A stretch of DNA of 12,426 bases from the IMG/VR virus record IMGVR_UViG_2690316131_000019; one strand, 5' to 3'. The translations under genes and the position numbers were made by a program. A model generated the notes under the pieces. It was not told the origin of the DNA, did no database searches, and worked only from the letters and a program-made list of their open reading frames with translations. This DNA is from a virus (lineage: Duplodnaviria > Heunggongvirae > Uroviricota > Caudoviricetes). Below, in pieces: positions 1 to 12,426 of this stretch (position 1 is the first letter of the stretch; each line of letters opens with the position of its first letter).

Positions 1-1890
1 GTGTTTACGGGAAAAAAATCGGCCCAGATCCGCGAAATTTTAATCAGCGAGTCAGCTTGGGAAGAAATGACCTGCTTATTCGCACCTTCCTTAGGCCAGG
101 CAAGCTATTTCCCACGTATATATAAAGTTGGAAAAATAATCAGTGAACGCGATAAATTTCGACGTATTTTGGTTGACTGGTGGTCGAGAGGCAATAAAAC
201 ACTGGATCCTGAGGATGCTGAAATTGCAGCGGATATCGTAATTAATAAAATTACTGGTGCTAAGGTTCCACAGGATTTTGTCAGCGTATTTTCTGTAAAA
301 GCCGCAGGTAGTACGAAAGAAAGAACATTAAATGTGCCTGATAGTCTTATCAGGGATTATCTCGAAAGTGATGTGAATTACGTTCTACAACGTCATATCC
401 GTGAAGCGGCAGCAGAAATTGAGTTGACGAGAACATTTGGCAAACGAACTATGACAGAGCGTCTGCAATTAATTGAGGACGAATATGACAGTCTGTTACG
501 GGAAGTGCCTGAAAAAATAAAGGCGAAATATGACGAAAGTGTGGCAAATCTGAAAGCACGTTATGAGAGCAATGGTGAAGTTGTTCCTCAGGGTAAACTC
601 GATTCATTAATGCGAAAGTACGAAAAGGAATTACGGAAAGAACAGTCCAGACTTTCAAAATCAAGAGCAAATGATCTCAGAGACATAACAGCATTACGCG
701 ATCGTCTTGTTGGTACATATGGTATGCCTGATGACCCGTCTTCGTTTTTTGTTCGTGCTGGCGCTTTTCTGCGGGATGTGAACTTCACGACCAAACTCGG
801 TGGAATGACAGTATCAGCTATTCCAGATCTGGCCAGAGGGGTTATGGTTAATGGTTTCCGTAACTCCATGAAAGGCTATGCTTCTCAGATATCCCAATCA
901 CCGGCATTTAAGGCCAGCAAAGAAGAGATGTTGAAGATGGGGATTGGATTGGAAACTGTACTACATTCACGTTCTCGTGCAATTGGTGATCTTGTTGACA
1001 GTTCTTCTAGGACAACAGCAGTCGAAGCAGGAATGGAGCGAATTACTGATGCCTTCGGCAAGCTGACACTCATGGATCGATTTAATGACATAAACAAATC
1101 CATGAACGGAATGCTCACGTCAGACGGTATTTTGTCTGGTGCGTTTTCTGCACGTCGCATGGCAAAACTCGGTATCAACGACAATATGGCTGCGCGTATT
1201 CGCAGTGAGTTCGAGAAACATGGTGAGGTAATTGATGGATGGCACATTGGTAACTTTGATAAATGGGACGATCAGTACGTTGCCGGAGTATTCCAGTCAG
1301 CGGTTCTGAAAGACGTTAATAACACTATCATCACCCCCGGTATTGGTGACACACCTTTATGGGCGAGTACTCCAATGGGGCGAACGATATTTCAGTTTAA
1401 ATCATTCACAACGGCTTCATACAACCGTGCGCTACTTGGTGGGTTACAGGAAGGAACTGCGCAATTTTATTATGGCACTGCATTTCAGATTGCTCTTGGC
1501 TCACTGGTCTATGCGCTTAAAGAAGCATCGAAAGGGAAAAATGTTGACTGGTCACCAGAGAAGCTGGTGCTTGAGGGTATAGATAGATCCGGTATTCTTG
1601 GGCCATTGATGGAATATAACAATATGGCTGAAAAGGCTACTGGTGGTGCTGTTGGGCTGGGGGCTTTATTTGGCACTGGCACACAGTCTAGGTATGCCAG
1701 TCGTGGATTCGTAGGATCTCTATTCGGACCGTCATTTGGTCTTGCGGATAGCATCATTGATGTGACCGCAGGAGTGTTGAATGGTGATGCCGGTGATCGT
1801 ATTGTGCATAATGTCCGAACCCTGATACCCGGCAATAACCTGTTCTGGATTGCGCCACTAATAAACCAGGTGGATCCGGTGATGCGGTGA
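1..1890 (+). CDS. Phage virion DNA-ejection / internal (DNA transfer) protein, probably 5'-truncated by the window edge
   Basis: Uninterrupted 629-codon frame running from base 1 to TGA at 1888-1890. Gly-rich hydrophobic C-terminal stretch (GGAVGLGALFGTGTQSRYASRGFVGSLFGPSFGLADSII) is typical of membrane-active ejection proteins. Sits immediately upstream of an immI-like region and the tailspike, as P22 gene 16/20 does. Product assignment rests on position and composition, not a recognised motif. Confidence 0.45.
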   Translation: MFTGKKSAQIREILISESAWEEMTCLFAPSLGQASYFPRIYKVGKIISERDKFRRILVDWWSRGNKTLDPEDAEIAADIVINKITGAKVPQDFVSVFSVKAAGSTKERTLNVPDSLIRDYLESDVNYVLQRHIREAAAEIELTRTFGKRTMTERLQLIEDEYDSLLREVPEKIKAKYDESVANLKARYESNGEVVPQGKLDSLMRKYEKELRKEQSRLSKSRANDLRDITALRDRLVGTYGMPDDPSSFFVRAGAFLRDVNFTTKLGGMTVSAIPDLARGVMVNGFRNSMKGYASQISQSPAFKASKEEMLKMGIGLETVLHSRSRAIGDLVDSSSRTTAVEAGMERITDAFGKLTLMDRFNDINKSMNGMLTSDGILSGAFSARRMAKLGINDNMAARIRSEFEKHGEVIDGWHIGNFDKWDDQYVAGVFQSAVLKDVNNTIITPGIGDTPLWASTPMGRTIFQFKSFTTASYNRALLGGLQEGTAQFYYGTAFQIALGSLVYALKEASKGKNVDWSPEKLVLEGIDRSGILGPLMEYNNMAEKATGGAVGLGALFGTGTQSRYASRGFVGSLFGPSFGLADSIIDVTAGVLNGDAGDRIVHNVRTLIPGNNLFWIAPLINQVDPVMR

Positions 1891-1901
1891 GTTAAACACC
1901 T

Positions 1902-2519
1902 TTAGCATGATTCAGGGGAAACCCCAATATTAAATATGAGTGTCTCCCCTGAATCAGCATAATAATGTAATATTATTGACTTACGTTGTTTTCTTGCTTC
2001 GTAGAATAAACGCTCTTGCGGCGATAATTTGTGAAAACTGCCGGATGCACAATATATGTTTTTTAACTTTTCGCGGGTTTCTTTTATTGTATCTTCTGAT
2101 ATGTATTTTAGGTATTTATCCGTATAGATGTTGCTACTATAAGAAATTAATGTTTTGCTGTTGTTGTGATGTATTGTATTTTTATCGTTGAAGTCTGTAT
2201 TTTTATTTACTGTCATTAGGTTTTTAATGATTACATGTAATACAATAGTCTCCCCATCATCAATTCCATATTTGATGTCATAGTCAGTATATTTATTTGT
2301 TATACCGTTTCCTGATAGCGGCACTATGTACTCTGAGAAAAATGAGTTTGCCGCGTGACTATCAAGAGCAATAGCAGTTTGTTTGTGGTAAAAATAAAAC
2401 AATATTGAGAGAGTCAAAATAATAGCGACGCCTAATGCAACCTTTAATATAGATATGGTTTTCAAAATATCGCTCCTTGTTGTAACATACATCAGTAATG
2501 TGGCGTTTTTCAATTGCAT
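1902..2519 (-). CDS. AT-rich membrane-anchored protein of unknown function, possible superinfection-exclusion-type moron
   Basis: 205-codon ORF at about 30% GC, much lower than flanking late genes. Strongly hydrophobic N-terminal segment (ILKTISILKVALGVAIILTLSILFYFY) followed by a polar Asn/Lys/Tyr-rich domain. Lies between the ejection gene and the mnt-like gene, where P22 carries sieA. No convincing Shine-Dalgarno at either candidate start (2519 or 2492), so the start is uncertain. Confidence 0.4.
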   Translation of the reverse strand: MQLKNATLLMYVTTRSDILKTISILKVALGVAIILTLSILFYFYHKQTAIALDSHAANSFFSEYIVPLSGNGITNKYTDYDIKYGIDDGETIVLHVIIKNLMTVNKNTDFNDKNTIHHNNSKTLISYSSNIYTDKYLKYISEDTIKETREKLKNIYCASGSFHKLSPQERLFYEARKQRKSIILHYYADSGETLIFNIGVSPESC

Positions 2520-2555: not shown

Positions 2556-2987
2556 CTATTCAGGTATTTCAATTCCAAAACCATCTGCATCCCATGAGTT
2601 TTCACAGATGATGTAACCTAGTTCATTGAGCTTATTAAATGTTTTTTCAAAGATGATCTGGTAATCATTATCTGCAAGTGATTCCAGTTCAAGGTCATTA
2701 AGGTTTATATAAAAACTTGTATGTCCAAGTGTTATTTTCTTATTAATTTCATTAAAGGTTCTTTTGAAAATAATATTTGATATTTCATGTCGTGCATTGT
2801 TTGCAATGATTTTTGCTTCATAAGCAGAAATTACGTCATCTTCATGAATATCTTTCAGAAAGCTGGTGTCAAGACGTTGTACTATTTCAGCGTTCATTGA
2901 TCGCTTATTGGCTTTTGCAGAAATTTCTATTTTTTCTTTTACTTCGACGGGAAGTCTGATCCTTAGTTGTGGATCTTCTCTGCTCAT
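2556..2987 (-). CDS. mnt: Mnt-like ribbon-helix-helix repressor with an extended C-terminal domain
   Basis: N-terminal segment MSREDPQLRIRLPVEVKEKIEISAKANKRSMNAEIVQRL matches the Arc/Mnt RHH signature (recalled P22 Mnt: DDPHFNFRMPMEVREKLKFRAEANGRSMNSELLQIV). Preferred start is the ATG at 2987, preceded by GGTGAAG; the ORF track extends to 3017. Product is 143 aa, against about 82 aa for P22 Mnt. Confidence 0.65.
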   Translation of the reverse strand: MSREDPQLRIRLPVEVKEKIEISAKANKRSMNAEIVQRLDTSFLKDIHEDDVISAYEAKIIANNARHEISNIIFKRTFNEINKKITLGHTSFYINLNDLELESLADNDYQIIFEKTFNKLNELGYIICENSWDADGFGIEIPE

Positions 2988-3024: not shown

Positions 3025-3072
3025 AGTATGCCTCACCGTGTGCTTGACATCAATGACGCACGGTGTGACAAT
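3025..3072. promoter_or_regulatory. Divergent, overlapping sigma70 promoters (Pant-like on +, Pmnt-like on -) with CACGGTG/CACCGTG operator-like repeats
   Basis: Plus strand: TTGACA (3044-3049), 17-bp spacer, TGT-GACAAT extended -10 (3064-3072). Minus strand: TTGATG (rc of 3048-3053), 17 bp, CATACT (rc of 3025-3030). The 7-mer CACGGTG or its complement occurs at 3034-3040 (inverted), 3060-3066, 3083-3089 and 3288-3294. Confidence 0.45.
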
Positions 3073-3107
3073 TATTTTGCCCCACGGTGGGGCTAAGGAG
3101 ATATGAA

Positions 3108-3275
3108 ATGCAAAAAGCAAAAGAGATGTGTCAACGACGAGTTCGTTTTCCGGACGATGTGAAGTTAGCTATTGAAAGAAATGGCGAAAAAGAATGCCGA
3201 AAGTTCAATACAGAGATTATCTATCAGCTGAGGAAAGTGTATGGACTCACTGGTGAGAAGAATAGCGTGGCATAA
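3108..3275 (+). CDS. arc: Arc-like ribbon-helix-helix repressor
   Basis: 55-codon ORF with AGGAG (3096-3100) 7 nt before the ATG at 3108. Sequence QRRVRFPDDVKLAIERNGEKECRKFNTEIIYQLRKVYG has the Arc-type beta-strand/helix pattern (recalled P22 Arc: FNLRWPREVLDLVRKVAEENGRSVNSEIYQRV). Divergent from the mnt-like gene and directly upstream of the ant-like gene, as in P22 immI. Confidence 0.6.
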   Translation: MQKAKEMCQRRVRFPDDVKLAIERNGEKECRKFNTEIIYQLRKVYGLTGEKNSVA

Positions 3276-3347
3276 AACAGCGAAGCCCCACGGTGGCCAG
3301 ACCGTCAGGGCTTCAGTATCGTAAAACTACGTATAGGAATTAACGAC
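3272..3347 (-). ncRNA. sar: Candidate sar-like antisense RNA covering the ant ribosome-binding site
   Basis: Minus-strand promoter inside the 5' end of ant: TTGATA (rc of 3377-3382), 17-bp spacer, TATACT (rc of 3354-3359), predicting a start near 3347. Minus-strand terminator hairpin (stem 3282-3288 / 3308-3314) followed by GCUGUUUUAU in the arc-ant spacer. Predicted ~75-nt transcript is antisense to the ant SD (AGGAA 3335-3339); by recollection P22 sar is about 69 nt and similarly placed. Confidence 0.4.
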
Positions 3348-4286
3348 ATGACGAGTATAGCAACAGCAGTATCTACTATCAACGTGCCATTCCACGGCGC
3401 AGAGCTTTATGTTGTCAATCACAACGGCGAACCGTATACCCCAATGAAACCTATCGTTGAGGGAATGGGGCTAGACTGGAAATCTCAACATAAGAAGATT
3501 TCTCAACGCTTCTCGAAGGGTATGGTGGAAATCACCATACCTTCTGCCGGTGGGGGGCAAGCCATGATTTGTATGGCTTTACGAAAATTGGCAGCTTGGT
3601 TGAACAGCATCAGCCCTAACAAAGTCCGCCCTGAAATCCGCGACAAGGTAATCCAGTATCAGGAAGAGTGTGACGATGTGCTCTACGAGTACTGGACTAA
3701 AGGCCATGTGGTTAACCCACGCAAAGCTAAAAAGGCGTTGCCGGGTAAAATAACAACTGAACAGCAGGAAGCCATTAAACAACTCGTCATGAGTCGCGGT
3801 CAGTCTCTGCCAAAAGAAAAACAGGCTAAGGCGATGATCACCATGTGGTCGTCACTGAAATCTCATTTTGGCTGTTCGTACAAAGAAATTGGTGAAGATC
3901 AATTTGCCGAAGCGTTGTCTCTTGTTGCTCGGGTTCCGCTTGAAGGGGAGTATCTCCCTGCTGGATCTGCATCAGAGAATGATGAAGTGGCAGTCAAGAT
4001 GTTAGATGCGCTTCGTGAGGCAATTAAAACACAGACAAAATGTTATGGTTATCCATTGAAGCCAGGCTACCGCAGTCTGATTCATTCGCCGTCGGGTGTT
4101 CTCGGCCTGACGGAGAACTCACTGCTGATGAATCTGCTGAACCAGTTACAGGAAGACGGGCACGACGTATCGGGCGCGGCGGCGGAGCTGACCACCATGT
4201 TCTGCTACATCGTCGGTGTGAGCAAATGCCTGCGTGATATCCAGACGCACGCGGAGTACATCAACGACAAGGCTGGGTTCTTCTGA
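3348..4286 (+). CDS. ant: Phage antirepressor (P22 Ant-like: N-terminal Ant domain plus conserved C-terminal module)
   Basis: 312-codon ORF with AGGAA SD 8 nt upstream of the ATG. N-terminus (SIATAVSTINVPFHGAELYVVNHNGEPYTPMKPIVEGMGLDW) resembles P22 Ant-type antirepressor N-domains. Lies downstream of arc as in P22. The C-terminal ~78 aa are nearly identical to the C-terminus of the 5460..6170 product. Confidence 0.7.
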   Translation: MTSIATAVSTINVPFHGAELYVVNHNGEPYTPMKPIVEGMGLDWKSQHKKISQRFSKGMVEITIPSAGGGQAMICMALRKLAAWLNSISPNKVRPEIRDKVIQYQEECDDVLYEYWTKGHVVNPRKAKKALPGKITTEQQEAIKQLVMSRGQSLPKEKQAKAMITMWSSLKSHFGCSYKEIGEDQFAEALSLVARVPLEGEYLPAGSASENDEVAVKMLDALREAIKTQTKCYGYPLKPGYRSLIHSPSGVLGLTENSLLMNLLNQLQEDGHDVSGAAAELTTMFCYIVGVSKCLRDIQTHAEYINDKAGFF

Positions 4287-4304
4287 CGGGCGGCGGCACA
4301 GGGA
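4050..4304. repeat. Left arm of a ~255-bp inverted repeat (3' end of ant plus 18 bp past its stop)
   Basis: The reverse complement of 5444..5698 matches 4050..4304 with only a few mismatches by manual alignment, including the stop codon and the downstream TGACGGGCGGCGGCACAG. Confidence 0.85.
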
Positions 4305-4335
4305 CGTGCAAAACGAAACTAGCGTGACATGTCAC

Positions 4336-4360
4336 AGGCCGCTTTCGCGGCCTTGTTTTT
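4336..4360 (+). terminator. Rho-independent terminator downstream of ant
   Basis: Stem AGGCCGC (4336-4342), loop TTTC, stem GCGGCCT (4347-4353), then TGTTTTT. Immediately preceded by a perfect 12-bp palindrome GTGACATGTCAC (4324-4335). Confidence 0.6.
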
Positions 4361-4520
4361 AACGAATGCCACCGCCGCCTGGGCGGGAATCCGCAGAACG
4401 CCCACCGCAGCGTGAGCCGTCAGCAGCAGTGTCGCTGTCGTGCTGACAACGACCGGCAAAGGCCTGAGTTGAAGCTACCAGAGACAACAAAACGAACAGT
4501 GCAGCAAATGCTTTTTTCAT
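4359..4520 (-). CDS. Small predicted secreted peptide (53 aa precursor, about 31 aa mature, two Cys)
   Basis: ATG at 4520 gives MKKAFAALFVLLSLVASTQAFA-GRCQHDSDTAADGSRCGGRSADSRPGGGGIR, with a classical signal peptide and AXA cleavage site. SD is weak (GGAA) and the mature part is GC-rich and low-complexity, so coding status is uncertain. The ORF track's 88-aa version starts at 4625 with no SD. Confidence 0.3.
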   Translation of the reverse strand: MKKAFAALFVLLSLVASTQAFAGRCQHDSDTAADGSRCGGRSADSRPGGGGIR

Positions 4521-4612
4521 TGTGAAATTTCCATCTATAAGCCACCTCAATGTGGCGTCAATGAGTGTAGCACTGACTTTTGTTTCGTCCACAAAAAAGC
4601 CTGCGCTGCGGA

Positions 4613-5158
4613 CTATTCCTTCCATTTATCAGAAAAAAGATCTTCTTCTAAAGGCATTGGTTCTGTTTTTGTTTTCTCAAAGAATTGATAACTGATAGTG
4701 ATTGCTTCCTCTTTAAACTCTTCTTGCTCAGTTATGTTGTGAGCATCTGCGTCAACAAAAAACATAACCAGCGCATCACGATTGTGATTTACCGAATAAA
4801 CTAAAAAGCAATCACTTGTTGGTATGCATTTTACTTGTACAGACGCTATATTTTTCCATGCATCCCAAGATGATTTTTTACCAGTGTGTTTTTTATCACT
4901 ATCTTCTGGAATATAGTCTTGGTTATCGACATGAGTATGCCTGACATTTAGTTTAAGCATTTCTGTCGGACGAGCAAATGCAGCATCTTTACCAAGAGAT
5001 GGATGATATCCCGTTTTCCAATACTGGGCAAAGGCATCAGATACTTTCTTCAGCTCAAGATCAGATGCACAAAGGGCCGAGAAATTTTGCGTATGCAATA
5101 CTCGACCCTTATATCTGACAATTTGATTTTTATCATTCTGCGACGCAGACGAACTCAT
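4613..5158 (-). CDS. YafO-like toxin-domain protein (candidate ribosome-dependent mRNA interferase / abortive-infection effector)
   Basis: 181-codon ORF starting at the ATG at 5158 with AAGGAAA SD. The central region (GKDAAFARPTEMLKLNVRHTHV ... TSDCFLVYSVNHNRDALVMFFV) resembles the recalled conserved YafO blocks (GRDALYDDSF..FERVAHIHL ... DEAHLVYCQ..AWLLIAIL). AT-rich relative to the flanking repeats. Assignment is from memory, not a search. Confidence 0.4.
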   Translation of the reverse strand: MSSSASQNDKNQIVRYKGRVLHTQNFSALCASDLELKKVSDAFAQYWKTGYHPSLGKDAAFARPTEMLKLNVRHTHVDNQDYIPEDSDKKHTGKKSSWDAWKNIASVQVKCIPTSDCFLVYSVNHNRDALVMFFVDADAHNITEQEEFKEEAITISYQFFEKTKTEPMPLEEDLFSDKWKE

Positions 5159-5312
5159 AATTTTCCTTATTGTTACGAGAATCAAAGAAAGCGCGGGATA
5201 CGCGACTTGCGTGATCTTTTGTCATAGTAACTTTTACGTACTCTACGCTTCCATTGAAAGAACGTCTTGCGGCAGCTTGCGCTCTACGCATCTGCAATTT
5301 TTCGTTTCGCAT
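5133..5312 (-). CDS. Small basic ORF (59 aa) overlapping the start of the YafO-like gene; possible cognate partner or regulator
   Basis: ATG at 5312 is preceded by GAGGT with 6-nt spacing. Hand translation gives MRNEKLQMRRAQAAARRSFNGSVEYVKVTMTKDHASRVSRAFFDSRNNKENYEFVCVAE, ending 26 nt inside the downstream gene. It falls just below the 60-aa cutoff of the ORF track. No recognised family. Confidence 0.2.
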   Translation of the reverse strand: MRNEKLQMRRAQAAARRSFNGSVEYVKVTMTKDHASRVSRAFFDSRNNKENYEFVCVAE

Positions 5313-5443
5313 GACATTACCTCATATCTCATAAGTTCATTACACGGATTAATAAAAATGAAACCAATCCGTTTACCCTTGAGGTAATAGTACGCTATTC
5401 ACCCACAGTCTGCAATCTGTACAGAATTATTTAAAGGCACATC

Positions 5444-5698
5444 TCTGTGCCGCCGCCCGTCAGAAGAATCCTGCTTTGTCGTTGATGTACTCCGCGTGCG
5501 TCTGGATATCACGCAGGCATTTGCTCACACCGACGATGTAGCAGAACATGGTGGTCAGTTCCGCCGCCGCGCCCGATACGTCGTGCCCGTCGTCCTGTAA
5601 CTGGTTCAGCAGATTCATCAGCAGTGAGTTCTCCGTCAGGCCGAGAACACCAGACGGCGAGTGAATCAGGCTGCGGTAGCCGGGCTTCAGTGGGGCAC
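5444..5698. repeat. Right arm of the ~255-bp inverted repeat (3' end of the Bro-N antirepressor gene plus 16-18 bp past its stop)
   Basis: Reverse complement aligns with 4050..4304 at roughly 95% or better identity by eye. Confidence 0.85.
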
Positions 5699-6170
5699 TG
5701 TAGGTTTTGTTCTCTATCTTCATTGCCTGTATTACTGCTGACGCCGTGGCGTTGGCTACCTGGTCGGCAACCATCTTTATGCGTTCTTCCTGCGGGAGCG
5801 AGTTTTTAATGTAACTTCCGGTGCGGCGGATCTGAGGAAGAACCTCACCTGTAACCCATTTACGAAAGCGGTAGGGGATAGTGCCTGGTGTCACCGCATC
5901 GCGGCAGCGGAGGATCAGTGTGTAGAGGCCTGACTCGGAGATGATGTTGATCTCTTTTACTCGGCTGTCAAAAATTGCACGATGTTCATGCCCTATGTTG
6001 AACATAGACCTTTCATCATCATCCAGTTTTTCAAGTGATTGGGTGACGTTTTGGATACGCAGCGCACTACAAACGTCTTGGGCTACAAACCATGGTTGGC
6101 CATCGATAATGATGGAACGGATAGGGTTAACAGATTCAAATTTGAAGATGGCAGTTTGAGCATTAGCCAT
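5460..6170 (-). CDS. Antirepressor with Bro-N-type N-terminal domain and the shared Ant C-terminal module
   Basis: 236-codon ORF from the ATG at 6170, with GGAG 9 nt upstream; the ORF track extends to a GTG at 6185. N-terminus FKFESVNPIRSIIIDGQPWFVAQDVCSALRIQNVTQSLEKLDDDER is a typical Bro-N / phage antirepressor N-domain. The C-terminal 78 aa match the ant C-terminus. Confidence 0.7.
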   Translation of the reverse strand: MANAQTAIFKFESVNPIRSIIIDGQPWFVAQDVCSALRIQNVTQSLEKLDDDERSMFNIGHEHRAIFDSRVKEINIISESGLYTLILRCRDAVTPGTIPYRFRKWVTGEVLPQIRRTGSYIKNSLPQEERIKMVADQVANATASAVIQAMKIENKTYSAPLKPGYRSLIHSPSGVLGLTENSLLMNLLNQLQDDGHDVSGAAAELTTMFCYIVGVSKCLRDIQTHAEYINDKAGFF

Positions 6171-6321
6171 GGTGGTTATCTCCACTTAGTGATTTTAATC
6201 ACCACCGCAACGCCAATTACTGGTGGTGAACTGGACAAGGTTGGCGTACCGGCCTAAGTGGTACCGGCGTCCTTTCGGACCCCTGCCCAGCCCACCATAA
6301 TTCGGATATGGCTGTGCTTAA

Positions 6322-6354
6322 CGCATAAAAAAACCACGTCTGGCGTGGTATGCG
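6322..6354 (-). terminator. Rho-independent terminator for minus-strand transcription from the LexA-controlled gene
   Basis: On the minus strand: stem CCACG, loop CCAGA, stem CGTGG (6334-6348), followed by UUUUUUU (6327-6333). An outer CGCAT/ATGCG pairing (6322-6326 / 6350-6354) is also possible. Confidence 0.5.
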
Positions 6355-6485
6355 CCACTTAGTAACTCGGGACGCCAATCCCGGCACTGGATTTTGCCAG
6401 TACCCGATTACTATGGCACAAGAGGAGTGCGATGTAAATTTACCTCAAAGGTAAATATAAGCACTCCACTTGGTAATTGCAAACC

Positions 6486-6743
6486 TTATCTGGTTTGTTT
6501 TCGTAATTGTTCGGCACAATAGTCGAGATGTGTTTGCAGATCCTGCATAGACATCTGTGAGCTGGTGACGTAGTTAATCAGTGCAGTCAGTTCGGCAAGT
6601 GGGCCATCGACATTAAATCCATCCTTATCGAGATCCCGGAGTAATTTCATCAAGAGCGATCCCTCCACCAGTGATCTGACGCCTCCCGGCGTGTGAATCC
6701 TTTCGGTAAATCCGTCTTCCAGTGGATAGTGATACTGCTGCAT
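6486..6743 (-). CDS. Small stand-alone antirepressor-like protein (85 aa), a free copy of the Ant C-terminal module
   Basis: ATG at 6743 with GGAGAAG SD. The product (..HTPGGVRSLVEGSLLMKLLRDLDKDGFNVDGPLAELTALINYVTSSQMSMQDLQTHLDY..) aligns with the shared C-terminal module of the two larger antirepressors (HSPSGVLGLTENSLLMNLLNQLQEDGHDVSGAAAELTTMFCYIVGVSKCLRDIQTHAEY) at roughly 40-45% identity by eye. Confidence 0.55.
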   Translation of the reverse strand: MQQYHYPLEDGFTERIHTPGGVRSLVEGSLLMKLLRDLDKDGFNVDGPLAELTALINYVTSSQMSMQDLQTHLDYCAEQLRKQTR

Positions 6744-6762: not shown

Positions 6763-6782
6763 AACTGTACAAATATACAGTA
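6763..6782. promoter_or_regulatory. LexA (SOS) box just upstream of the small antirepressor-like gene
   Basis: AACTGTACAAATATACAGTA matches the consensus TACTGT(AT)4ACAGTA; CTGT-N8-ACAG is intact at 6765-6780. It lies about 8 nt upstream of the SD of the minus-strand gene that starts at 6743. Confidence 0.6.
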
Positions 6783-6938: not shown

Positions 6939-9227
6939 ATGACGGTCTCAACCGAAGTTGACCACAACGAATACACAGGTAACGGTGTTACGACATCATT
7001 TCCGTATACCTTCAGGATTTTCCAGAAATCTGATCTGGTAGTACAAGTGGTTGACCTTGATGAAAATATCACTGTTCTTGCTCTTGATACTGATTACACA
7101 GTTACCGGGGCGGGAGGATATAACGGTGGTAATGTAATTCTGTCGAAGGTGTTGGCTAACGGTTATCTGATTTCTATATATCGAGAGCTACCGGTTACGC
7201 AGGAAACTGATTTGCGTAATCAGGGTAAGTTCTTTGCAGAAGTGCATGAGAACGCTTTTGATAAGCTAACGATGCTGATCCAGCAGGTTCGAAATTGGTT
7301 CAGTCTGGCGCTACGAAAGCCGTCGTTCGTGGCTAATTATTACGACGCGATGAATAACTATATTCGTAATCTTCGTGACCCATCTAGGCCGCAAGATGCA
7401 GCAACGAAAAATTATGTTGACGGGCTTGCAGAAACAAACCTGAGCAGAACGCTACGAACTCCCGAACCGATATCAACTTTGCCCGGCGTTGAGCAACGTA
7501 AGAATAAGATTGTTGCAATGGATGATTCAGGGAACCCACTCATGGTTCTCCCGGAATCAGGTTCTGCATCTGATGTTATGATCGAGTTAGCAAAGCCAAC
7601 AGGGGCTAGTTTGATTAATACTAAAGATGGAGAAAATCTACAACTTAAAATTAATAAAATACCTCCCCTTTATGCTGAGGAGTTTGGTGATCTTACTGGA
7701 TTTGATGTTACTGACATATTTCAACATGCTATTGATACTGCATCTGCTCAATGCCGTGAATTAAGAGTAAGGACGCAAATTATAAATGTTAGGCAACTCA
7801 AACTCCCTAACAATACTATTTTAAATCTAGGCGTTTGTACTTTAAGGCAAATATCTAATACAAATAAGCCATTAATCAGGAATGATGTATTTGGATATGC
7901 GGATAAAGTTCATACAAACTTAAATATTACCATTATTGATGGGATTCTTGATTTTAATGGTTCAAACCAGTCTGACACTACGGCAACAGGAGAAGTTAAT
8001 GTCGGCTGTGCATTTTTTGGGGTGAAAGGCCTTCATTTTCGTGGCTCAACAAAATTCATTAATGCCAGACGTTATAGTTTTTTTGCTGCAAATTGTGCAA
8101 ACATTACTTTTGATGATCCGGTTGTTGAAAACGACCCGGAAATACCAAGTAGTAATAAAGATGGCTTACATTTTTGCGGAAAAATTTACGGTATTTCAAT
8201 AAAAAGTATTTATGTTTATAACCCAGAAGATGATGCACTAGCTATAAATGCTGATGATGTAGATCATGGTGGGGAATGGACTCGCGCTAACATTACTGGA
8301 GCAATAGATAATGTTTGGGTTGGGCAAGTTCGTGTGGATGGTCCTTCATCGCATAACGGTGTGCGTTTGCTAAGTGCGTCCCCCAACACCCCTATTTCAA
8401 ATGTGAAAATTGATTCAATTGTAGGTAAAGTAGATAATTATTTTCTTAATATTCAACCATACGGTTTAGGTACTTCATCGGTATACCACAATATTGATAT
8501 CGGAATTATAGGAGGAATATATTCTGTCAGAACCAATCCTGCATTTACTCATGGCATGGTAAATATCTACACTATGAAGCCGAACCCAGCAGTTTTGAAT
8601 AATATTCATATTGGTCAGATTTTTCGTGATCAGGAAATTGGCGATGGACAGGATCGTCCGACTGTACAGTTATGTGTTGAAAACACTTCTGTTACATTTG
8701 ATAAAATTGTCGAGCAGAATTGTGCTAATGATGCTGTCGTTAGGGTAACGGAGATAGGACCTTCGGCTTTTATAACTCTAAACGAAGCATACAAAAAATC
8801 CACCCGAACCTTAACTCCTGGTGTGTATGGTTCCATCGTAATTGTAAGTAATGTTAACGACAATCAACTTGAACACCTTAAAATTGGATTCAATTCTGCA
8901 GATAGACTACGTCACGTTGTATTGGCAAGGTCTGTAAAAATTAAACGTTTAGATATGTTTAGTGATGGTTCAGCAGACAATATCCCTCTGTATCTTGAAT
9001 CATCCCAGGTAACTAATCTGAATTGGAATAGTAGTGTTACATCCACTTATCAATTTACTGCACACCGCTATACGCTTTCAGGTGAATCGTCTGCTGTAAT
9101 ATTTGAACGCCCTGCTGTTACAGGTGGGAGTACTGCAGAACGTCCAGTAAATGCAATAATTGGTGACAGTTTCTATGATACAACAACGAATACTCGTGTG
9201 AACTGGAATGGTAGTGCTTGGGTTTAA
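6939..9227 (+). CDS. Tailspike / tail fibre protein with conserved N-terminal particle-binding domain and C-terminal beta-helix receptor-binding (probable polysaccharide depolymerase) domain
   Basis: 762-codon ORF with GGAG SD. The N-terminal ~150 aa (EYTGNGVTTSFPYTFRIFQKSDLVVQVVD...DTDYTV) fit the T7 gp17 / epsilon15-type tailspike anchor pattern as recalled. The downstream part is AT-rich with repetitive N/G/I/V-rich segments typical of a right-handed beta-helix. Confidence 0.8.
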   Translation: MTVSTEVDHNEYTGNGVTTSFPYTFRIFQKSDLVVQVVDLDENITVLALDTDYTVTGAGGYNGGNVILSKVLANGYLISIYRELPVTQETDLRNQGKFFAEVHENAFDKLTMLIQQVRNWFSLALRKPSFVANYYDAMNNYIRNLRDPSRPQDAATKNYVDGLAETNLSRTLRTPEPISTLPGVEQRKNKIVAMDDSGNPLMVLPESGSASDVMIELAKPTGASLINTKDGENLQLKINKIPPLYAEEFGDLTGFDVTDIFQHAIDTASAQCRELRVRTQIINVRQLKLPNNTILNLGVCTLRQISNTNKPLIRNDVFGYADKVHTNLNITIIDGILDFNGSNQSDTTATGEVNVGCAFFGVKGLHFRGSTKFINARRYSFFAANCANITFDDPVVENDPEIPSSNKDGLHFCGKIYGISIKSIYVYNPEDDALAINADDVDHGGEWTRANITGAIDNVWVGQVRVDGPSSHNGVRLLSASPNTPISNVKIDSIVGKVDNYFLNIQPYGLGTSSVYHNIDIGIIGGIYSVRTNPAFTHGMVNIYTMKPNPAVLNNIHIGQIFRDQEIGDGQDRPTVQLCVENTSVTFDKIVEQNCANDAVVRVTEIGPSAFITLNEAYKKSTRTLTPGVYGSIVIVSNVNDNQLEHLKIGFNSADRLRHVVLARSVKIKRLDMFSDGSADNIPLYLESSQVTNLNWNSSVTSTYQFTAHRYTLSGESSAVIFERPAVTGGSTAERPVNAIIGDSFYDTTTNTRVNWNGSAWV

Positions 9228-11355: not shown

Positions 11356-11895
11356 TTAATTAAACCAGCTGTCCGATTTGTTCTCTTCTGCTTTGCCCAC
11401 GCTTTTCATCAGATCGCGACCGCCTTCAGTCATATTTCTGTTGGCGTCAGCTTCAGATTGCACCACATCGGTTTGCGCAGCTTTGTGCTTCAGTTCCTGA
11501 TCGATAAATTCGTTTTCTCGCTTAACGCGGGCTTCTTCTTTTGCCAGCGCCAGTTTTTGTTTCTGAATCTCTAAGCTGCGTAGCTCATCTTCATAACTTT
11601 GATCGCGTTTTTTGTCCGCAGAGGCTTCGGCGTCCAGTTTATCCTGACGAGCTTTCTTATTTGCCGCTGCCGTTGCCGCTCTTTTGTTAGCGGCGGCCTG
11701 GGCATTTGCGCGACGTTGCTTCTCTTGCTGGATTTCCCTGTTGCGCTCCGCGACCCATTCGTCATGCTGCCTTTGCTCTTCATTTTTACCTTGCTGTTCA
11801 GCTTCTGCTACAGCAGAGAGTTGATCCTGCAATGATGAGGCGATAGCCGGATAGCTTAAGGAGGCCAAGATGGCGCAAAGAAAAACTTTCTTCAT
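11356..11895 (-). CDS. Secreted, highly charged coiled-coil-like protein of unknown function
   Basis: 179-codon ORF with a classical signal peptide (MKKVFLCAILASLSYPAIA-SS) followed by Lys/Glu/Ala/Gln-rich low-complexity sequence. Confidence 0.5.
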   Translation of the reverse strand: MKKVFLCAILASLSYPAIASSLQDQLSAVAEAEQQGKNEEQRQHDEWVAERNREIQQEKQRRANAQAAANKRAATAAANKKARQDKLDAEASADKKRDQSYEDELRSLEIQKQKLALAKEEARVKRENEFIDQELKHKAAQTDVVQSEADANRNMTEGGRDLMKSVGKAEENKSDSWFN

Positions 11896-11910
11896 GACTC
11901 CTCCTGATTA

Positions 11911-12426
11911 TTAGCTCTTTTCAGGACATTTAGTATTTGGCTGAATACGCGTTTCGTTATACGTTGTGGTAATAACAACGGCTAAACCTGTCGTAAACTG
12001 GCACTCTTTACCCACCTGGGTAGAGGTATACACTTTGGTGCCTTCCTTATATGTTAAAGAAACACCTTCCACTAAGGTTTTATCATTCACCATAGAACCC
12101 ACTGCCGCGCCTACAGCTCCGCCGCCAACTGCCCCTGCCGTCGTTCCGGAATTGCTGCCAGAACCGACGTTGTGGCCGATAACACCGCCAGCGACTGCGC
12201 CAATAAGCGCGCCGAAGGCTTGTGCGTTCCGTTTATTTTGGGAGTTGTCTACGGCAACTTTTGCGGGAAGAATGGAAATAATATTAACGGTTTTAGTTTC
12301 TTGTTTGGTATTCAGTTGATCGGTTTGATAAACATCGGCGGCATGATCGTCAGCATTTGACTGGCATCCTGCCAGAGTGAATGACGCTAACATTGCCACA
12401 GGCAGAAGACATTTTTTAAATTTCAT
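11911..12426 (-). CDS. Outer-membrane lipoprotein of the glycine-zipper (SlyB/Pcp, YcfJ-like) family
   Basis: Lipobox (LASFTLAGC) and a central Gly-zipper (GALIGAVAGGVIGHNVGSG...GAVGGGAVGAAVGS) closely resembling recalled E. coli YcfJ (GSVLGAVAGGVIGHQFGGG) and SlyB. The start codon is the last three bases of the window. Confidence 0.6.
   Translation of the reverse strand: MKFKKCLLPVAMLASFTLAGCQSNADDHAADVYQTDQLNTKQETKTVNIISILPAKVAVDNSQNKRNAQAFGALIGAVAGGVIGHNVGSGSNSGTTAGAVGGGAVGAAVGSMVNDKTLVEGVSLTYKEGTKVYTSTQVGKECQFTTGLAVVITTTYNETRIQPNTKCPEKS

Follow-up and report, generated by a model that had tools for sequence, protein, structure and literature searches.

Why would one phage keep three versions of the same antirepressor unit side by side? 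The question is raised by a 12,426-nucleotide stretch of viral DNA (IMG/VR record IMGVR_UViG_2690316131_000019), the whole of which we refer to as the window. These 12.4 kb are the late and accessory part of an epsilon15-like (Uetakevirus, phiV10/TL-2011b-type) Escherichia coli prophage. Three genes within it, here called A, B and C (Table 1), share a unit of about 80 amino acids (aa): A and B end in it, and C consists of it. All three are also present in Escherichia phage TL-2011b, which is 95.7% identical to the window over 82% of its length. Judged by its sequence and predicted fold, the repeated unit is an antirepressor of the type known as Ant in Salmonella phage SPC32H. We think it likely that the phage deploys this unit three times, each time behind a different switch, with the signals converging on one Rep repressor.

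We compared the three copies pairwise. The C-termini of A and B are identical at 84 of 101 positions (E-value (E) 9e-51), with one residue differing in the last 78. C shares 33/76 residues with A (43%, E 3e-21) and 32/74 with B (43%, E 2e-20), making it diverged yet clearly related. An initial annotation of this DNA had described such a module, with two near-identical copies and a diverged third, in these same three open reading frames (ORFs); the alignments bear this out, except that the module spans ~78–83 aa and not ~70. The N-terminal domains are likewise as that annotation had claimed, a P22_AR_N domain in A (PF10547, E 7.6e-45) and a Bro-N domain in B (PF02498, E 3.9e-19, full-length profile match). 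Because the last 78 codons of A and B show 9 synonymous and 1–2 non-synonymous differences, selection appears to act on both copies. At the DNA level the two form an inverted repeat of 292 nucleotides (nt) that is 91% complementary overall and ~97% identical in its coding part, with identity running 23 nt beyond both stop codons. Phages phiV10, ZX5 and HEMP4 align with the window from ~4321 onward; this starting point of the alignment of phages without gene A lies 11 nt past the end of the left repeat arm. A synthetic inverted-junction query, representing inversion of the cargo between the arms, had no full-length match in 5,426 E. coli genomes. The same query showed that in ETEC1749 and SCU-387 the A stop codon is followed by ~65 nt of the window's B downstream flank, which hints at exchange across the repeat.

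The identity of the module emerged from structural comparison. A PDB profile search matched one entry, 5D50 chain E ('Anti-repressor protein', 86 aa; E 1.7e-48), which belongs to the Rep–Ant complex of SPC32H, itself an epsilon15-like phage. Searched alone, gene C matches this chain with E 1.5e-45 at ~87% identity, and the A module with E 6.5e-14. The AlphaFold (AF2) model of C (predicted local distance difference test (pLDDT) score 80) superimposes on 5D50 chains G, E and H with template modelling (TM) scores of 0.84–0.88 and root-mean-square deviations of 1.5–2.2 Å, at 87–88% identity. The model of the A/B-type module (pLDDT 85.6) reaches TM scores of 0.68–0.75 to chains G and H. For both models 5D50 Ant is the sole significant PDB fold match, and for the A/B type nothing else in the PDB matched at E < 1. 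Both predicted folds share a short N-terminal segment, helices at residues 12–15, 19–28 and 30–40 and a long helix from 46 (46–80). The module has no Pfam or NCBIfam model, and PHROGs lists it as family 450, 'unknown function'. Both SPC32H Ant and the 5D50 structure have reportedly been studied before (Kim and Ryu 2013; Kim et al. 2016).

Gene C is best understood as the orthologue of SPC32H Ant (85 versus 86 aa). The two genes occupy the same place, directly upstream of and divergent from the tailspike gene, with a LexA box ahead. The initial annotation was right that C is diverged in sequence, but C is a conserved core gene of epsilon15-like phages and not a diverged derivative; that it corresponds to an already characterised antirepressor had been missed. 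Significant homology to SPC32H Ant, in sequence and in fold, also holds for the A and B modules, but they differ in three respects. They are carried as C-terminal domains of larger proteins (312 and 236 aa) behind P22_AR_N or Bro-N, they fall in a separate paralogue clade at 36–43% identity, and they have no LexA box, lying instead under immI-type elements. A homologous repressor is present as well in TL-2011b, the nearest relative of the window phage: its gp10 (194 aa) aligns from end to end with the 5D50_A Repressor (E 6.6e-42), although this window-type Rep partner is only ~42% identical to SPC32H Rep.

The distribution of the module follows that of Rep. Among 50,697 phage records, 35 carry the module, 36 a full-length Rep and 35 both, a pattern consistent with a dedicated module–Rep pair. 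Every carrier in these records is an epsilon15-like phage, with E. coli, Salmonella, Enterobacter or Klebsiella as its host. The free type (C) is a core gene, found in 35/35 of the module-bearing records; the fused type is accessory. Only 61 clusters (50% identity) with the module were found in a profile search of 1.84 billion representatives, and they include fusions to AntA, Bro-N, Rha, ORF6N and P22_AR_N scaffolds as well as many free-standing forms; this survey of scaffolds combines the representative profile search with Pfam and E. coli genomes, a word-indexed search for A/B-module homologues having returned short proteins only. Some free-standing proteins, ~95 aa long, are of the fused type and start inside a conserved linker, MPAxxEAxK. 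At locus B of related E. coli prophages, AntA or ORF6N replaces Bro-N while the layout is kept, and the modules differ by 0–2 residues. These exchanges suggest that the module is the constant part and the N-terminal scaffolds are interchangeable. Iyer, Koonin and Aravind (2002) are said to have described domain-shuffled phage regulators of the KilA-N/Bro-N/AntA/Rha/ORF6N kind, which similarly join an interchangeable, putative DNA-binding N-terminal domain to a variable C-terminal domain; the C-terminal unit seen here, however, is not among the catalogued Pfam domains KilA-C/ANT, P22_AR_C, ORF6C and Bro-C. As a side observation, two long representatives (560 aa and 2265 aa) match part of the module profile in 7 and 2 stretches, respectively. 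The 560-aa protein has scattered, sub-threshold Pfam matches only, and both are probably repetitive or low-complexity chance matches.

The proposal that the copies are deployed under different regulatory inputs receives strong support, with a LexA box at C, Mnt-like, Arc-like and sar elements at A, and an IsrK/C4 leader at B. Upstream of gene C lies the window's only perfect CTGT-N8-ACAG, CTGTACAAATATACAG, a candidate box that would place C under SOS (LexA) control. Its CTGT/ACAG half-sites are kept at −37/−34 in TL-2011b, phiV10, ZX5, three E. coli prophages and Tyrion, the sequence between them being variable. A scan of the window for CTGT-N8-ACAG found no LexA box near A or B. The gene C ORF could be extended to TTG 6761, but the start at ATG 6743 is better supported by the position of the LexA box and the 258-nt gene of RefSeq relatives. 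Between the C stop codon (6486) and the IsrK-like promoter and leader (6486–6327) we saw no minus-strand terminator-like site. Since nothing of this kind separates the two, LexA-controlled C transcripts could, speculatively, continue into the IsrK/C4 leader and perhaps as far as gene B, which would link B to SOS.

Gene A sits in what resembles a P22-type immI cassette. The order is that of P22 (a Mnt-like gene, a divergent promoter, an Arc-like gene, sar over the ant start, then Ant), and the cassette likewise lies between an internal virion protein gene and the tailspike gene. The Mnt-like protein has a Pfam Arc domain (E 1.2e-14) and is 32% identical to P22 Mnt over 88 aa (E 3e-14), although it is longer (143 versus 83 aa); RefSeq relatives annotate its gene as a 432-nt 'Arc family DNA-binding protein'. 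The Arc-like protein is 33% identical to P22 Arc (E 4e-5), and the Pant-like and Psar-like promoters occupy the places of their P22 counterparts. A full-length match to the sar family (44.8 bits against a gathering score of 43) ends at the A start codon, and the sar hairpin and ant start region align with P22. Around the Pant-like promoter (3040–3100), and in the arc–ant spacer within the sar hairpin (3285–3300), CCCCACGGTGG(GG) and CACCGTG/CACGGTG half-sites recur; these are candidate operators for the Mnt-like and Arc-like proteins.

The protein encoded by gene A departs from this template at its C-terminus. It is 38% identical to P22 Ant over aa 1–212 only (E 2e-37), its N-terminal two-thirds, and diverges beyond. 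P22_AR_C (PF10548), which occupies aa 200–272 of P22 Ant (E 7.2e-31), is absent from A and its E. coli orthologues and is replaced in A by the SPC32H-type module. Most simply read, a P22-type immI cassette came to act on an epsilon15-type repressor when its C-terminal target-binding domain was exchanged. We also asked whether P22_AR_C might be remotely homologous to the module. Matches of the form F-x-Y-I-x-G...T-H...I-N were suggested by a MAFFT alignment, but the idea was rejected at the sequence level, as hhalign gave two module profiles a probability of 0.4% against the P22 Ant C-terminus. Module sequences did not match PF10548, nor did any other Pfam family match convincingly.

Gene B follows a leader of the kind found in P1/P7 immI and in the Gifsy-1 isrK-orf45-anrP region, where an IsrK-like RNA with a1/b1 sites, a C4-like RNA and a2/b2 sites over the ribosome-binding site precede an antirepressor-type gene. 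The C4 match is full-length (66 bits against a gathering score of 45, E 2.6e-11), and the isrK family (Rfam RF01394) matches 6327–6403 (-) with 63.5 bits against 50. In a complementarity search, adjacent C4 loops pair with the downstream sites, nt 32–40 with 6217–6209 and nt 42–49 with 6189–6182; single target matches of 8–10 nt could arise by chance, and the argument rests on their duplicated, ordered pattern. The ORF could be extended to GTG 6185, but ATG 6170 is better supported by a GGAG Shine–Dalgarno overlapped by the C4 target. In Gifsy-1, IsrK controls translation of the downstream antirepressor gene (PMC4825925). Unlike P1 and Gifsy-1, the window has no icd/orf45-type leader ORF between C4 and B, and, unlike in P1, the downstream protein is a Bro-N domain joined to an SPC32H-type module and not Ant1/2. 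In phiV10 (4062–4741) the counterpart of B consists of two ORFs, p23 (Bro-N, 194 aa) and p22 (29 aa), with module matches in two pieces; the gene appears to be frameshifted.

Experimental work on a relative bears on gene B. The ZX5 protein ORF4 ('anti-repressor') and TL-2011b gp46 are both 80% identical to B and carry a module identical to that of A, although over its first ~70 residues the Bro-N portion of ORF4 is only ~50% identical to that of B. TL-2011b gp42 is 93% identical to A, and gp47 is C. Overexpression of ORF4 lowered prophage counts from 1e9 to 1e6 plaque-forming units (PFU)/mL (~1000-fold), reduced repressor transcripts by 75% and favoured lytic growth (PMC9782041). The Rep of ZX5 is 98.5% identical to that of TL-2011b. 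Database entries for the ZX5 and TL-2011b proteins read 'anti-repressor Ant', 'Bro-N domain-containing protein' and 'hypothetical protein', and they are neither interlinked nor tied to 5D50. The proposal that the module is the repressor-binding unit gains support from its homology to SPC32H Ant, its predicted fold, its constancy under N-domain swaps and the ORF4 effect.

How would these parts work together? We propose that the Ant-type unit in all three proteins binds Rep and lifts repression. According to published descriptions, SPC32H Ant forms a tetramer that engages two Rep dimers (PMC9638917), disrupting the Rep tetramer that binds DNA (PMC9638917; bioRxiv 10.1101/2025.11.27.690993). In the same way, an Ant tetramer in this phage would bind two dimers of an XRE-type Rep and break up its DNA-binding tetramer, and we infer that the fused modules, too, bind Rep and tetramerise. 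Gene C would be the ancestral free-standing Ant, held off by LexA and made upon DNA damage as the SOS route to induction. Gene A would be a P22-immI cassette whose P22-type C-terminal domain was replaced by the epsilon15-type Ant module, and gene B a Bro-N fusion behind a P1/Gifsy-type leader, with C4 loops pairing over the B Shine–Dalgarno. In P22 and P1 immunity, antirepressors act as anti-immunity functions in cells without Mnt or C4. By analogy with these phages, A and B would stay off once lysogeny is established. Arrival of the genome in a cell that has no Mnt or C4, for example during infection or superinfection, would switch them on, and they would then serve as anti-immunity functions. 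The timing of each gene's expression is our reading of its control elements, and several signals probably converge on one prophage repressor.

Several points weigh against this proposal. The Rep gene lies outside the window, its presence being deduced from TL-2011b and other relatives, and the co-occurrence of module and Rep is confounded by shared ancestry, all carriers being epsilon15-like. Between fused-type and free-type modules, identity is only 36–43%. In the ZX5 experiment the entire Bro-N fusion was expressed with a glutathione S-transferase (GST) tag, and the effect is not assignable to the module. Promoters in the window are consensus matches only, and the c4-a1b1 family (RF03163) scores 43.4 bits, just under its gathering score of 46.7.

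The copies could instead have different targets, with C inactivating the Rep of its own phage, and A and B acting on the repressor of a co-resident or heteroimmune epsilon15-like prophage, in trans-acting cross-talk of the Gifsy kind, or on another Rep surface. Sequence comparison indicates that fused and free modules are old paralogues. They are 36–41% identical in each of E. coli, Enterobacter phage Tyrion and a Klebsiella phage, and they form separate clades, each type being closer across hosts than to the other type within a host. Because this identity and clade structure recur in three host lineages, both types appear to have been long retained, and the age of the paralogy leaves room for different specificity. 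Established knowledge of P22-type Ant, an anti-immunity factor that acts on resident prophages, also fits such a role. For Salmonella, there is documented precedent for antirepressors that act across phages (PMC3121763). We nevertheless consider separate targets unlikely. Both types occur only in phages with a Rep homologue, and the identity of the fused type falls in step with that of Rep (95/76/54% versus 98/78/45%; the three lineages with both module types are too few to tell shared from different targets). Seven polar and aromatic residues (Y4, H17, S29, D41, E51, Y58 and H72) do not vary within or between the two types, the lysogeny of ZX5 is affected by the phage's own ORF4, and distinct regulation alone suffices to explain why paralogues are retained. 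Rep co-occurrence, divergence that tracks Rep and the invariant polar positions favour a family of targets shared by the fused and free clades.

Both ideas could be joined in a hub, in which one tetramerising, Rep-binding unit is wired to SOS, Mnt/Arc/sar and IsrK/C4, A and B are homogenised across the repeat, mixed tetramers can form, and the fused clade, with swappable N-terminal adaptors, has a distinct specificity, for example for co-resident Rep variants. We regard this combination as doubtful; if true, it would amount to a phage–phage anti-immunity weapon with swappable N-terminal adaptors. Less probable still is that the module mainly tetramerises the fusions, leaving the KilA-N/Bro-N-type N-terminal domain to carry the real activity (binding DNA or another target). 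SPC32H Ant is indeed a tetramer (PMC9638917), and the long C-terminal helix (aa 46–80) of the module is of a kind often seen in oligomers built as helical bundles. The 38% identity to P22 Ant that gene A retains over 212 residues indicates that its N-terminal part is also under selection. Yet unrelated Bro-N, AntA and ORF6N domains interchange at one locus behind the same leader and before the same module, which fits poorly with a locus-specific function residing in the N-domain. In SPC32H the module by itself makes a complete antirepressor, the fused type also occurs in stand-alone form, and the N-terminal non-helical stretch Y-x-x-P-L-x-x-G-Y...I-H-x-P-x-G-V, and not just the long helix, is conserved in the fusions. 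Finally, recombination between immunity cassettes might have left one fused gene, or both, as a non-functional relic, the repeat having no role. The split phiV10 gene and a mosaic region with variable cargo suggest this, but it is very improbable given that both ORFs are intact here, that the codon differences noted above are mostly synonymous, that at least 10 complete E. coli genomes share the layout and that intact regulatory RNAs lie upstream of each gene.

Convergence of separately controlled Ant units on Rep thus remains our preferred account, and much of its background is known: the free Ant, the P22 and P1 immunity circuits and the domain shuffling of Bro-N/AntA-type proteins. The three-gene layout itself sits unremarked in TL-2011b and in those E. 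coli genomes, and many more genomes have it with variant cargo or scaffold. In the searchable literature we found no description of the C-terminal unit of the fusions as an SPC32H Ant fold, nor of one phage placing an Ant unit under three separate canonical controls. The three-gene set is a new architectural variant of a known antirepressor family. Many phage proteins called 'antirepressor' (Bro-N, AntA, Rha, ORF6N and P22_AR_N) have no defined repressor-binding part, and the C-terminal unit of one such set is now tied to a solved repressor–antirepressor complex, 5D50. This yields a testable assignment in which the choice of target lies with the C-terminal domain, and the N-terminal domain and the leader upstream can be exchanged. 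A further implication concerns how an epsilon15-like phage may take over immunity cassettes of the P22 and P1 types, with no more than the target-binding domain being exchanged. The module defines a family (~60 clusters at 50% identity) for which Pfam and NCBIfam models are lacking, and its recognition should allow the circuits that induce prophages to be annotated better in E. coli, Salmonella and Klebsiella, where carriers include phages associated with enterohaemorrhagic E. coli (EHEC), such as TL-2011b.

Table 1 Genes, RNAs and candidate control sites in the window, in order of position.
Feature	Position	Strand	Details
Internal virion protein gene	1–1890	+	
205-aa membrane protein gene	1902–2519	-	Function unknown
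Mnt-like ribbon-helix-helix repressor gene	2556–2987	-	143 aa from ATG; ORF reaches TTG 3017; divergent from arc-like/ant operon
Pant-like sigma-70 promoter	3044–3072	+	TTGACA-17-GACAAT, for arc-like gene and gene A; consensus scan, 10/12
Arc-like small repressor gene	3108–3275	+	55 aa; PHROG 228 'Arc-like repressor', E 1.8e-5
sar-type antisense RNA	3279–3346	-	Opposite gene A ribosome-binding region; Rfam RF00262
Gene A	3348–4286	+	312 aa; P22_AR_N aa 12–121; P22 Ant-like middle to ~aa 212; Ant module aa 230–312, nt 4035–4283
Psar-like promoter	3382–3354	-	TTGATA-17-TATACT; ends 7 nt before sar RNA start
Left repeat arm	4018–4309	.	End of gene A and 23 nt downstream
GC-rich hairpin	4336–4353	.	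AGGCCGCTTTCGCGGCCT, then T run; where gene A and B operon converge
Cargo block	4359–5312	-	Convergent with gene A
Small membrane-anchored protein gene	4359–4625	-	
YafO-like toxin gene	4613–5185	-	Pfam YafO_toxin, E 9.2e-6
59-aa ORF	5133–5312	-	
Right repeat arm	5437–5728	.	End of gene B and 23 nt downstream
Gene B	5460–6170	-	236 aa from ATG 6170; Bro-N nt 5835–6122; linker; Ant module nt 5463–5714
RNA-rich leader before gene B	6182–6438		
a2 and b2 C4 targets	a2 6209–6217; b2 6182–6189	-	b2 overlaps GGAG Shine–Dalgarno of B
C4-type antisense RNA (P1/P7 immI type)	6219–6302	-	Rfam RF01695
IsrK-like small RNA/leader	6327–6416	-	Own terminator 6333–6349; promoter-like site 6438–6410 (-)
a1 and b1 C4 targets	a1 6370–6379; b1 6355–6362	-	Complementarity search
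Gene C	6486–6743	-	85 aa; free-standing Ant, orthologue of SPC32H Ant and epsilon15 gp19; divergent from tailspike gene
Candidate LexA (SOS) box	6765–6780	.	CTGTACAAATATACAG; 22 nt upstream of gene C ATG
Tailspike gene	6939–9227	+	
Holin, endolysin and spanin genes	After tailspike		

The genes between A and B form a variable slot. Cargo genes of the window match PHROGs 1651, 3117 and 14503, and in related E. coli prophages the slot holds other genes, such as those for DUF4760 and DUF2335 proteins. The ORF of the YafO-like toxin partly overlaps the 59-aa ORF, and no recognisable YafN-type antitoxin was found in the cargo (4359–5312). The hairpin at which gene A and the B operon converge is a probable bidirectional terminator, as judged from its sequence.

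To the left of the Mnt-like gene, the 205-aa protein has an N-terminal hydrophobic segment, a low GC content (32%) and no Pfam family. It occupies the position of sieA in P22, between the last injection-protein gene and mnt, but has no similarity to P22 SieA (E 0.12). PADLOC defence models gave nothing significant against A, B and the cargo genes, and a weak TIR-like match to the 205-aa protein (E 0.005), which may be a superinfection-exclusion or defence moron. At the other end of the window, the two genes past the lysis cassette (11356–12426, minus strand) code for a member of the DUF5384 family and for a lipoprotein rich in glycine. The RefSeq name of this lipoprotein in TL-2011b, 'DNA methyltransferase', is apparently an annotation error. 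Many Shiga toxin (Stx)-converting phages match the window, probably in 11356–12426 or in the lysis genes.

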